From a bacterium (lineage in GTDB: Bacteria > Margulisbacteria > Marinamargulisbacteria > GCA-2716485 > JAYNIM01), in assembly GCA_038109055.1 (NCBI GenBank), contig JAYNIM010000001.1, forward strand, positions 1-49,259: a stretch of DNA of 49,259 nt, in the 5' to 3' direction. The notes under the pieces are model-generated. The model was not told the origin of the DNA and did not search any database. It worked only from the letters and a program-made list of their open reading frames with translations. Below are positions 38,170 to 39,111 of this stretch, in pieces (position 1 is the stretch's first letter; every line of letters begins with the position of its first letter). The position numbers were made by a program, and so were the translations under genes.

Positions 38170-39111
38170 ATGCGCAAGACTATATTTCTTTTTGTTTTAT
38201 TTGTTTGTATTGGGCTAAGCTTTTTTGTTTTAGATTATAATGCTGTTTTTTATAGTGAAGCTCAGCGTATTAAAACGCAGTATGAACAACATTTAACCTC
38301 AAAAGTAACAGATATTTTAAATACATTTTTACCTTCTTCAACGTATAGAGTTGTCGTGAGTGTTAGCTTGGATATGGAAGAGTATAATGTGGAAAAAATT
38401 GTTAACAGACCGCATAAGATTCGTGTTGTTGATGGGGTTGATATTGTTAATAATCGTGTTCCTGTAGATATAGTTGTTCCTGATGTGATTAAAAATCGTG
38501 ATTTATCTATGCCAGGATTTTCTAAACTTATGCCTGATAAAGATTCGTATATTGATATTTATCAATCTCGTAAAAATATGGTACTGCCAGAAACAAAGGT
38601 GGTCTCGAATGAAAAACGTTTCAATGAAAAATTTTTAGTGGATACGGAAACATCACGGCGTGTGATTTCTAAGTATAAGCCACTTTATCAACATGTTTTT
38701 GTTTTACTAAGTGAGGATTCTTCAACTATTATTTCTGACGAGAAATTACAGACTCTTTTGATGAATGGATTGGGGGTTCGTGATGTTAAAGAAAATCGTT
38801 TAATCATTCAACGTTTTCGCTTTCGACTACATAGTAAGTGGTACAAAAAACTATGGGATTTTGCGCATCAGTACAAGACCTATGTGTTTGTTATCTTGGC
38901 TGTATTGGGTGCTATGGTGTTACTTAATATGGTTTATAGAGTGTTACTTGCTTATTTTAAACGACCTAAAGTTGAACAAAAGGATGATGTAAAACCTGAA
39001 CCTCAGCTTAGTCCTGAGGTGACCTTGGAGGATAAGAAGCAGCAATTGTTAGAGTTTGCTAAGTCTGATCCGGATAAGGTCAAGGAGTTGTTGGATATAT
39101 GGATGAAGTAA
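38170..39111 (+). CDS. Truncated FliF-like MS-ring protein (TM, RBM3/beta-collar, TM, FliG-binding helix)
   Basis: YEQHLTSKVTDILNTFL..YRVVVSVSLD..P matches the start of the FliF C-terminal ring domain, and 'LQTLLMNGLG...ENRLIIQRFRF' matches its end. A second TM and a terminal FAKSDPDKVKELLDIWM (dPe.vA.ll..W) follow. About 313 aa. Confidence 0.72.
   Translation: MRKTIFLFVLFVCIGLSFFVLDYNAVFYSEAQRIKTQYEQHLTSKVTDILNTFLPSSTYRVVVSVSLDMEEYNVEKIVNRPHKIRVVDGVDIVNNRVPVDIVVPDVIKNRDLSMPGFSKLMPDKDSYIDIYQSRKNMVLPETKVVSNEKRFNEKFLVDTETSRRVISKYKPLYQHVFVLLSEDSSTIISDEKLQTLLMNGLGVRDVKENRLIIQRFRFRLHSKWYKKLWDFAHQYKTYVFVILAVLGAMVLLNMVYRVLLAYFKRPKVEQKDDVKPEPQLSPEVTLEDKKQQLLEFAKSDPDKVKELLDIWMK

Follow-up and report, generated by a model that had tools for sequence, protein, structure and literature searches.

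An RBM3-only FliF paralogue with a rotor–stator–barrel operon in Margulisbacteria: a likely rotary motor acting on the outer membrane

The flagellar motor's core comprises the FliF MS-ring, the C-ring of FliG, FliM and FliN, and a MotA5B2 or PomA5B2 stator; FliG is bound by the C-terminal helix of canonical FliF, which bears the motif DPxxVxxLLxxW. To our knowledge, flagellar rotor and stator have been taken to work only in concert with an export gate and an axial shaft, and we know of no rotor or stator for SpoIIIAG of the Bacillus sporulation channel. According to the accessible text of PMC8270960, SpoIIIAG is a static RBM3-like ring, and in Salmonella 23 of the 34 FliF subunits give their RBM2 domain to an inner ring, leaving a hole for the gate. 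RBM3 alone forms rings (accessible part of bioRxiv 2021.09.23.461508), the S-ring lumen is about 142 Å for a 33-mer (PMC11739650, in part), and loops 309–331 of Salmonella FliF grip the rod (PMC11528121, in part). Torque is passed from MotA to FliG via the charged pairs R90/D288–D289 and E98/R281, E98 being numbered as in E. coli (accessible part of PMC12505986).

Margulisbacteria are an uncultured sister phylum of Cyanobacteria and include eukaryote-associated members. Here we analysed a 49,259-nucleotide stretch of DNA from this phylum (contig JAYNIM010000001.1; hereafter the window), in which a first-pass annotation had pointed to a FliF-like gene without the RBM1 and RBM2 domains. The protein, FliF′, and its neighbours likely form a rotary motor of a kind not described before, one that would act on the outer membrane and turn no flagellum, because the export-gate domains are missing, rotor, stator and barrel genes form a conserved cluster, and filament genes were mostly not found. 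No description of an RBM3-only FliF motor or of this operon was found in a literature search that mostly covered journals outside subscription. The word "Margulis" is absent from the accessible parts of PMC12505986 and PMC13277936, and the accessible main text of the Margulisbacteria genome paper PMC6349859 makes no mention of flagell-, motility or type III.

Identity and anatomy of FliF′

The open reading frame of FliF′, from its ATG to its stop, encodes 313 residues, and the ORF, hydropathy, alignment and an AF2 model bore out the initial reading of a first transmembrane segment (TM1) followed shortly by RBM3, then TM2 and a DPxxVxxLLxxW helix (Table 1). The AF2 model (mean pLDDT 81.4, pTM 0.49) comprises TM1, an RBM3 helix starting at residue 30, a long β-hairpin, TM2 and two C-terminal helices. 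The motif helix spans residues 300–311, of which W311 is at least 90% conserved in a 28-member alignment; apart from P81 and the collar-tip pair P115–G116, no internal residue is invariant across the family.

Alone, FliF′ scores weakly, matching TIGR00206 at E 0.014 over residues 28–82 (14.4 bits against a curated equivalog cut-off of 129.75) and no FliF Pfam family at cut-off. Relatives were therefore collected from genomes of the same phylum and the HMMER library, and a family profile was built from 28 aligned full-length members. The profile matches positions 226–559 of Salmonella FliF (E 7.8e-20), that is, from the start of RBM3 through the collar and TM2 to the C-terminal helix, and nothing in its RBM1/2. 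PF08345 (RBM3 with β-collar) was found in 24 of the 28 members and PF01514 (RBM1–RBM2) in none. The conserved E39 of RBM3 lies 17 residues after TM1, and the corresponding gap measures 10–29 residues in all 28 homologues, compared with about 180 residues of RBM1/2 in the export-cluster FliF of the same genome (PF01514, residues 83–258). Structure prediction and alignment to Salmonella FliF thus agree that RBM3 is present and RBM1/2 are not, and the homologues share the same absence, both as had been proposed.

A Foldseek search with the model returned FliF rings at ranks 1–18 and SpoIIIAG at rank 19 (E 8.6e-3), with low global TM-scores of about 0.27, in keeping with the earlier suggestion of a SpoIIIAG-like, RBM3-only architecture. 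Three known families were considered. The injectisome protein SctJ/YscJ, an RBM1–RBM2 ring protein, is out, given that no member carries PF01514. Of canonical FliF, the protein has RBM3 with the collar, both transmembrane segments and the C-terminal helix, and it lacks RBM1–RBM2 and falls below the TIGR00206 cut-off. The SpoIIIAG family shares the RBM3-like fold; the sequence match is absent, no SpoIIIAG chain being among the 27 matches of the family profile up to E 10, and so is a spoIIIA operon, the neighbours being fliG and motAB.

A frameshifted upstream fragment encoding RBM1/2 was sought by three routes and none was found. PF01514 has a single match in the genome, at C1:512445, about 470 kb from FliF′; tblastn of the genome with RBM1/2 of the export-cluster FliF returned only the query itself at RBM1/2, with no fragment upstream of FliF′; and the 71-bp gap after cysN, upstream of fliF′, has stops in the other frames. 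Contigs from two other samples of the same study cover 37513–38351 and 38175–39372 without a single difference, and one from a different study spans 38196–38410 with 6 substitutions and no gap. As these contigs from other runs span the TM1–RBM3 junction without a gap, the missing RBM1/2 is not an assembly artefact. The first-pass annotation had taken the absence for a clean in-frame loss: both transmembrane segments are indeed kept and the architecture is conserved across homologues, but the organism's FliF was not the loser. FliF′ is an old paralogue and not a fresh deletion, as strong matches in 32 of 146 genomes of the phylum show; beside it, the same genome holds a separate RBM1/2-bearing FliF and two further motor operons.

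Table 1. Features of FliF′ and of the genes downstream (positions in the window)
Feature	Position	Strand	Basis
FliF′, RBM3-only MS/S-ring protein without RBM1/RBM2	38170..39111	+	Profile, Pfam, AF2 model, Foldseek
TM1, residues 4–22 (predicted)	38179..38235	+	Hydropathy; helix in AF2 model
RBM3 helix 1 and strand, residues 30–68	38257..38373	+	Family profile, AF2 model, collar measurement
β-collar insertion, 101 aa, long hairpin with flexible tip	38374..38676	+	AF2 model, collar measurement
Pro115–Gly116 at collar tip; candidate output/partner-binding peptide	38512..38517	+	Invariant in 28/28
RBM3 second half, residues 170–216	38677..38817	+	Family profile, AF2 model
TM2, residues 237–255	38878..38934	+	Hydropathy
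C-terminal helices with DPxxVxxLLxxW motif	39025..39105	+	Alignment, family profile, AF2 model
FliG′, 327 aa, N, M and C domains, torque-helix R286, E293, E294	39099..40082	+	PF01706, profile, alignment
MotA, flagellar/PomA-type stator subunit	40079..40855	+	Family scans, profile
MotB with TM aspartate, plug and OmpA-like peptidoglycan-binding domain	40852..41499	+	Family scans, alignment
FliM middle domain only, 168 aa	41500..42006	+	Profile against solved FliM (E 2.8e-12); homologues with PF02154
414-aa protein, signal-like N-terminus, predicted 12-strand outer-membrane β-barrel, C-terminal TPR	42003..43247	+	Pfam, model

The operon, its relatives and the rest of the genome

The operon runs fliF′–fliG′–motA–motB–fliM (middle domain only)–12-strand barrel with TPR, with successive overlaps or gaps of −13, −4, −4, 0 and −4 nt, and a convergent gene ends the cluster. 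The first-pass annotation captured FliF′ itself and missed MotAB, the FliM middle domain and the barrel–TPR gene. Its proposal that the ring still docks FliG is likely correct, given that fliG′ overlaps fliF′ by 13 nt and that natural FliF′–FliG′ fusions occur in 3 of 26 relatives' loci. FliG′ reaches 23.6 bits with PF01706 (cut-off 23.3), and its family profile matches solved FliG at E 6e-42, covering positions 8–330 against 3hjl. MotA belongs to the flagellar class and has the cytoplasmic torque region. FliM′ leaves no room for a C-terminal domain that binds FliN or an N-terminal segment that binds CheY, and its GGxG motif reads L-G-L-K-E. The barrel part of the last protein has no Pfam match in 33 family members; its fold neighbours include FapF, PorV and autotransporter barrels, which reveal no function.

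Directly upstream of fliF′, positions 27980–38098 hold a sulfate-assimilation and sulfur-carrier cluster that is not kept beside the relatives' modules; from a sequence reading we take its genes to be an Rrf2 regulator, cysK, ThiS/MoeB/JAB-like genes, a sulfite reductase with a TusA-like tail, cysH, cysD and cysN. At 6–2879, a region of higher GC (0.47) encodes a 957-aa repetitive Gly/Ala/Arg-rich protein, possibly a secreted effector-like protein, whose C-terminal end presumably carries a dual-specificity-phosphatase-like motif.

For 26 of 37 strong relatives, the loci were fetched, from 22 genomes. FliG′ is adjacent or fused to FliF′ in 23 of the 26 (fused in three), the FliM middle domain is present in 22, the barrel–TPR gene in 22, often as two tandem copies, and MotA with MotB in 17, all counted with profiles built from those same loci, among which related ones are non-independent. 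Some of the misses (MotAB in nine loci, the barrel in four) are contig or fetch ends. Export-gate, rod and LP-ring genes gave no match in the 26 loci (323,617 bases; tblastn with 11 proteins of the window's genome), while two control loci matched.

Several relatives show features of their own. Natural FliF′–FliG′ fusions of 669–825 aa stand at loci L036, L037, L047, L049 and L056, the 825-aa ones with a long collar insertion that by eye resembles S-layer-homology repeats; a fusion presumably exists in Chlorobium as well. One FliF′ subgroup (L055:11730-15267, L064:3824-4702 and L072) adjoins chaperone-usher pilus-like genes (Usher E 2.8e-5; SCPU matches), and similar-looking genes beside the second FliF′ copy of the window's genome (C2:116429-122295) have no Pfam match. 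In family f36, a gene for a secreted barrel-like protein of 269–279 aa precedes fliF′ (L066:1-660, L067:2274-3110, L069:1953-2759), with a TraF_2 match that is weak at most; by motif we take it to resemble PorV. Three single-cell assemblies of Picozoa supplied the closest homologue (32% identity, P0002 cluster), which hints that these protists live with, or feed on, such bacteria. Named homologues from Marinamargulisbacteria (P0006) and Margulisbacteria (P0025) bear out the phylum.

The window's genome (1.82 Mb, 93% complete) contains three motor operons, including that of the window, and one FlhA. A second operon of the same type lies at C2:122379-129487, and an operon of a third type at C2:148011-152048 encodes a TPR protein, a FliF′–FliG fusion, MotA and MotB. 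Such third-type fusions (L200 of this genome and L098–L110) are 466–549 aa long with a collar of about 58 aa, and many genomes of the phylum have FliG_C-bearing frames in the same size range. Separate from the motor operons, an export/basal-body cluster at C1:510919-521624 (loci L003 and L014) holds FlhA, FlhB, FliPQR, FliN, FliHIJ, FliE, rod and L/P-ring genes, of which FlhB, FliPQR and FlgB were named by sequence reading and tblastn controls and not by family scan. Its FliF keeps RBM1/2 with a collar of 8 residues, its FliG has N and M domains without the C (torque) domain, and all PF01052 matches of the genome fall within it. Flagellin (PF00669), the hook cap FlgD (PF03963) and CheW each had no match in this genome, and PF06429 matched only FlgG and FlgC, FlgE and FlgK not being found. 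The genes at the FlgB, FlgC and FlgF positions of the cluster start, by eye, with hydrophobic signal-peptide-like segments, likewise in genome G005, and the 211-aa gene at the flgJ position (C1:515404-516036) carries a duplicate of the RBM3, without collar, that the export-cluster FliF has (tblastn 29.7%, E 8e-8). In L014, at 8711-17499, a tandem duplication has left two large paralogous ORFs (1040 and 1312 aa) whose C-termini are identical, and behind each stands the same 255-aa gene.

Across the phylum, 32 of 146 genomes have an RBM3-only FliF at a threshold of E 1.4e-20, 26 of them in the window's own class (55 genomes) and six outside. In that class, flagellin matched in one genome of 55 and FlgD in none, with positive controls; the six module-bearing genomes outside it have flagellin-family and FlgD matches, canonical FliF and FliG, and mostly two FlhA. 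Among all 146 genomes, many of them incomplete, FlhA was detected in 135, FliG_C in 64, MotA in 60, the flagellin family in 15 and FlgD in 11, so that in at least 71 genomes the export cluster is kept while the rotor torque domain went undetected. The excess of FlhA over flagellin, together with the two FlhA in most flagellated families, points to a flagellum-derived export system across the phylum that is separate from the flagellum.

In an unrooted FliG tree of 52 rows, a branch with 99/94 support parts nine flagellar and 13 third-type sequences from 29 module sequences and one third-type sequence, and the window's FliG′ belongs to a long-branched subgroup of seven members (100/99). Those seven loci also come together in the MotA tree (98), likewise unrooted, inside a 23-row clade (99) of 18 of the 20 module MotAs, three third-type and two solitary ones; the module-type MotA in three third-type operons represents MotA moving between module types. 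By these groupings the module is old and stands apart from the flagellar rotor of the phylum; in the window's subgroup it has been inherited as a unit, and there has been some swapping of stators. In genome G001 (L109, L053), the FliG part of a third-type fusion groups with the module FliG′ of the same genome (100/98) and the sole MotA is of the module type, which suggests recombination between modules and a shared stator.

A proposed motor and the competing readings

We give somewhat better than an even chance to a reading in which the module is a MotAB-driven rotor ring whose collar loops act on the outer-membrane barrel–TPR protein and not on a rod. By analogy with the flagellum, RBM3 alone would assemble a membrane ring, about a 34-mer with a lumen of about 14 nm; FliG′ would dock on the C-terminal helix of FliF′, and the ring would carry FliG′ and the FliM middle domain. 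MotA, anchored to the wall with MotB, would apply torque to the FliG′ torque helix, and the ring centre would hold no export gate. The collar-tip loops may then pass force to the periplasmic side of the barrel–TPR protein, the putative output of the motor. The latter is the best output candidate because no other conserved gene of the module is non-flagellar and because its TPR, to judge from the even strand number, would lie on the periplasmic side. Since FliM′ has no FliN-binding domain and the genome no CheW match, the motor would not be chemotaxis-switched. Its most probable job would be ion-powered mechanical work at the outer membrane, either gating of the barrel or export or movement of a surface protein, with surface motility as the second option; judged by the predicted barrel's fold neighbours only, gating or surface-protein export or movement would be favoured over gliding.

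The residues of the motor were located through FliG and MotA profile alignments. Of the 23 FliG sequences in the module alignment, 22 have R at the position of R286, 22 have E or D at that of E294, and 14 have E at that of E293. The position of MotA R90 (K88 here) is K or R in 15 of 17, whereas that of E98 is E in only five of 17 and V in the window's MotA. The transmembrane Asp of MotB is present in 19 of 19, four of them read by eye. The window's module copies are the most diverged, with a FliG′ branch of 1.94 and 14–23% identity to relatives.

The collar measures 88–254 aa in 28 module rows as against 72–85 in eight flagellar FliFs, 54–62 in 11 of 12 third-type fusions and 0–25 in all 13 export-cluster FliFs, six of the last with a weak first anchor. 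A PG motif in the collar occurs in 24 of 26 relatives, both copies of the window's genome and all 12 third-type fusions, in no export-cluster collar and in one of eight flagellar FliF collars of the phylum; in the third-type module, too, the PG motif goes together with a TPR protein. Of the tandem PG copies of the family, the first aligns to P313–G314 of Salmonella FliF, within the rod-gripping loops 309–331, with moderate posterior probability. As one of the eight flagellar FliFs has the motif and the window's FliF′ retains the second copy only, the alignment is no more than suggestive of a link between the PG motif and the rod-binding loops of flagellar FliF. A complex prediction of the FliF′ periplasmic domain with the barrel–TPR protein gave an ipSAE of 0.34 compared with 0.09 for the best control, with no interface given; at least 31% of contacts agree between runs, and the partner pLDDT is at least 60. 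The same mark was attained in calibration by 116 of the 157 solved pairs and two of the 215 mismatched ones, with 18 of the former and both of the latter at or below 0.60. The prediction thus weakly suggests a contact; for pairs that were not likely from the outset, scores in this range are wrong more often than right.

Alternatively, the ring might not rotate at all and, as a scaffold or sensor, anchor MotAB and the barrel in a trans-envelope bridge, the FliG ring standing still while MotAB rotates by itself or senses load. The poorly kept E98 position, the fast divergence of the rotor proteins, the loci without MotAB and the static SpoIIIAG ring (PMC8270960, in part) all fit such a bridge; it is unlikely, however, given that the torque-helix charges of FliG, the R90-equivalent of MotA and the MotB Asp are kept, that MotA is of the flagellar class with a cytoplasmic torque region, and that MotB retains its plug and wall-binding domains, with which a stator is held in place under load.

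Quite unlikely is a split flagellar base, in which FliF′ and the export-cluster FliF share one mixed ring that turns a rod in the L/P rings, the former giving the collar and a torque-competent FliG and the latter RBM1/2 for the gate. Its appeal comes from the complementarity of the two FliFs, as the export-cluster FliF has RBM1/2 but a collar of 0–25 aa in 13 of 13 rows and a FliG without the C domain. The rod and L/P rings are retained in the genome, and only 23 of 34 Salmonella subunits contribute RBM2 to the inner ring (PMC8270960, in part). Against this, at least 71 genomes have the export cluster (FlhA) with no FliG_C match, the window's genome has three motor operons for one FlhA, export genes are linked to the module in none of 26 loci, the module has its own barrel partner in 22 of 26, and no hook cap or filament was found for it to turn.

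It is very improbable that the module serves a true flagellum as an accessory or alternative motor, with hook and filament genes that the drafts lack or that have diverged too far for detection. The genome is 93% complete, and the six module-bearing genomes outside the class do have flagellin-family and FlgD matches; nevertheless, they own canonical FliF and FliG from which their module FliG stands apart on the 99/94 branch, the class itself yields FlgD in 0 and flagellin in 1 of 55 genomes with positive controls, and a ring without RBM2 cannot house the required gate (accessible text of PMC8270960). A decaying flagellar relic with no coherent function, to which long branches and weak single-sequence family scores might point, is hardly credible and already largely refuted: the overlapping ORFs are intact and keep their order in many families, catalytic and torque residues persist, and there are duplications and natural fusions.

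To a wider picture we assign slightly less than an even chance: Margulisbacteria may have taken the flagellum apart into independent machines, namely a non-rotating export or basal body and stand-alone rotary motors on outer-membrane barrels or surface structures.

Comparison with known systems

The FliF′ family has dropped exactly the domains that house the gate, and the export cluster of the same genomes has dropped exactly the collar and the torque domain. The modularity of the flagellum thereby becomes testable in natural proteins, including C-ring templating by RBM3 only, ring size without RBM2, and a motor without export. If the proposed motor is real, it would be the first use of flagellar rotor–stator gear outside the flagellum and a natural minimal rotor, and its five or six genes would offer a small chassis for structural work. 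It would further indicate a so far undescribed ion-powered envelope function in an uncultured phylum, and there is a fair chance that the module is a new kind of envelope machine.

Like the flagellar motor core (Salmonella 6SCN, Vibrio 8Z5V, Clostridium 8UCS/6YSF), the module has the RBM3/β-collar fold, two transmembrane segments and the C-terminal helix, a full FliG with torque helix, the FliM middle domain, a flagellar-class MotA, and a MotB with Asp, plug and OmpA domain. Unlike it, the module is devoid of RBM1/RBM2, the FliN- and CheY-binding parts of FliM, the export gate, rod, hook and filament; moreover, it co-encodes the 12-strand barrel–TPR protein, occurs in several copies per genome and has natural FliF–FliG fusions. 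Considered as a bacterial flagellum, it presents the FliG torque domain and MotAB, and it lacks a linked gate, hook and filament, a complete switch and chemotaxis input. With SpoIIIAG (5WC3) it shares an RBM3-like ring domain and a long β-hairpin without RBM1/2, yet FliF′ matches FliF far better, has TM2 and a tail of the FliG-binding type, and stands among rotor and stator genes.

In its likely role the module resembles TonB–ExbBD, Tol–Pal and the GldLM/PorLM motor of the type IX system, each of which couples an inner-membrane ion motor to an outer-membrane barrel, although it would use a flagellar rotor ring and flagellar-class stator and not a TonB, TolA or GldM arm. Flagellum-derived export systems without motility, such as the Buchnera basal bodies (PMC8109811, in part), match the separate export cluster of the window's genome, with gate, rod and L/P rings and without filament; the FliF′ module is the opposite half, a motor without export. 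Taken together, the FliF′ module would work like a flagellar rotor–stator core but is neither a canonical FliF nor a flagellum.
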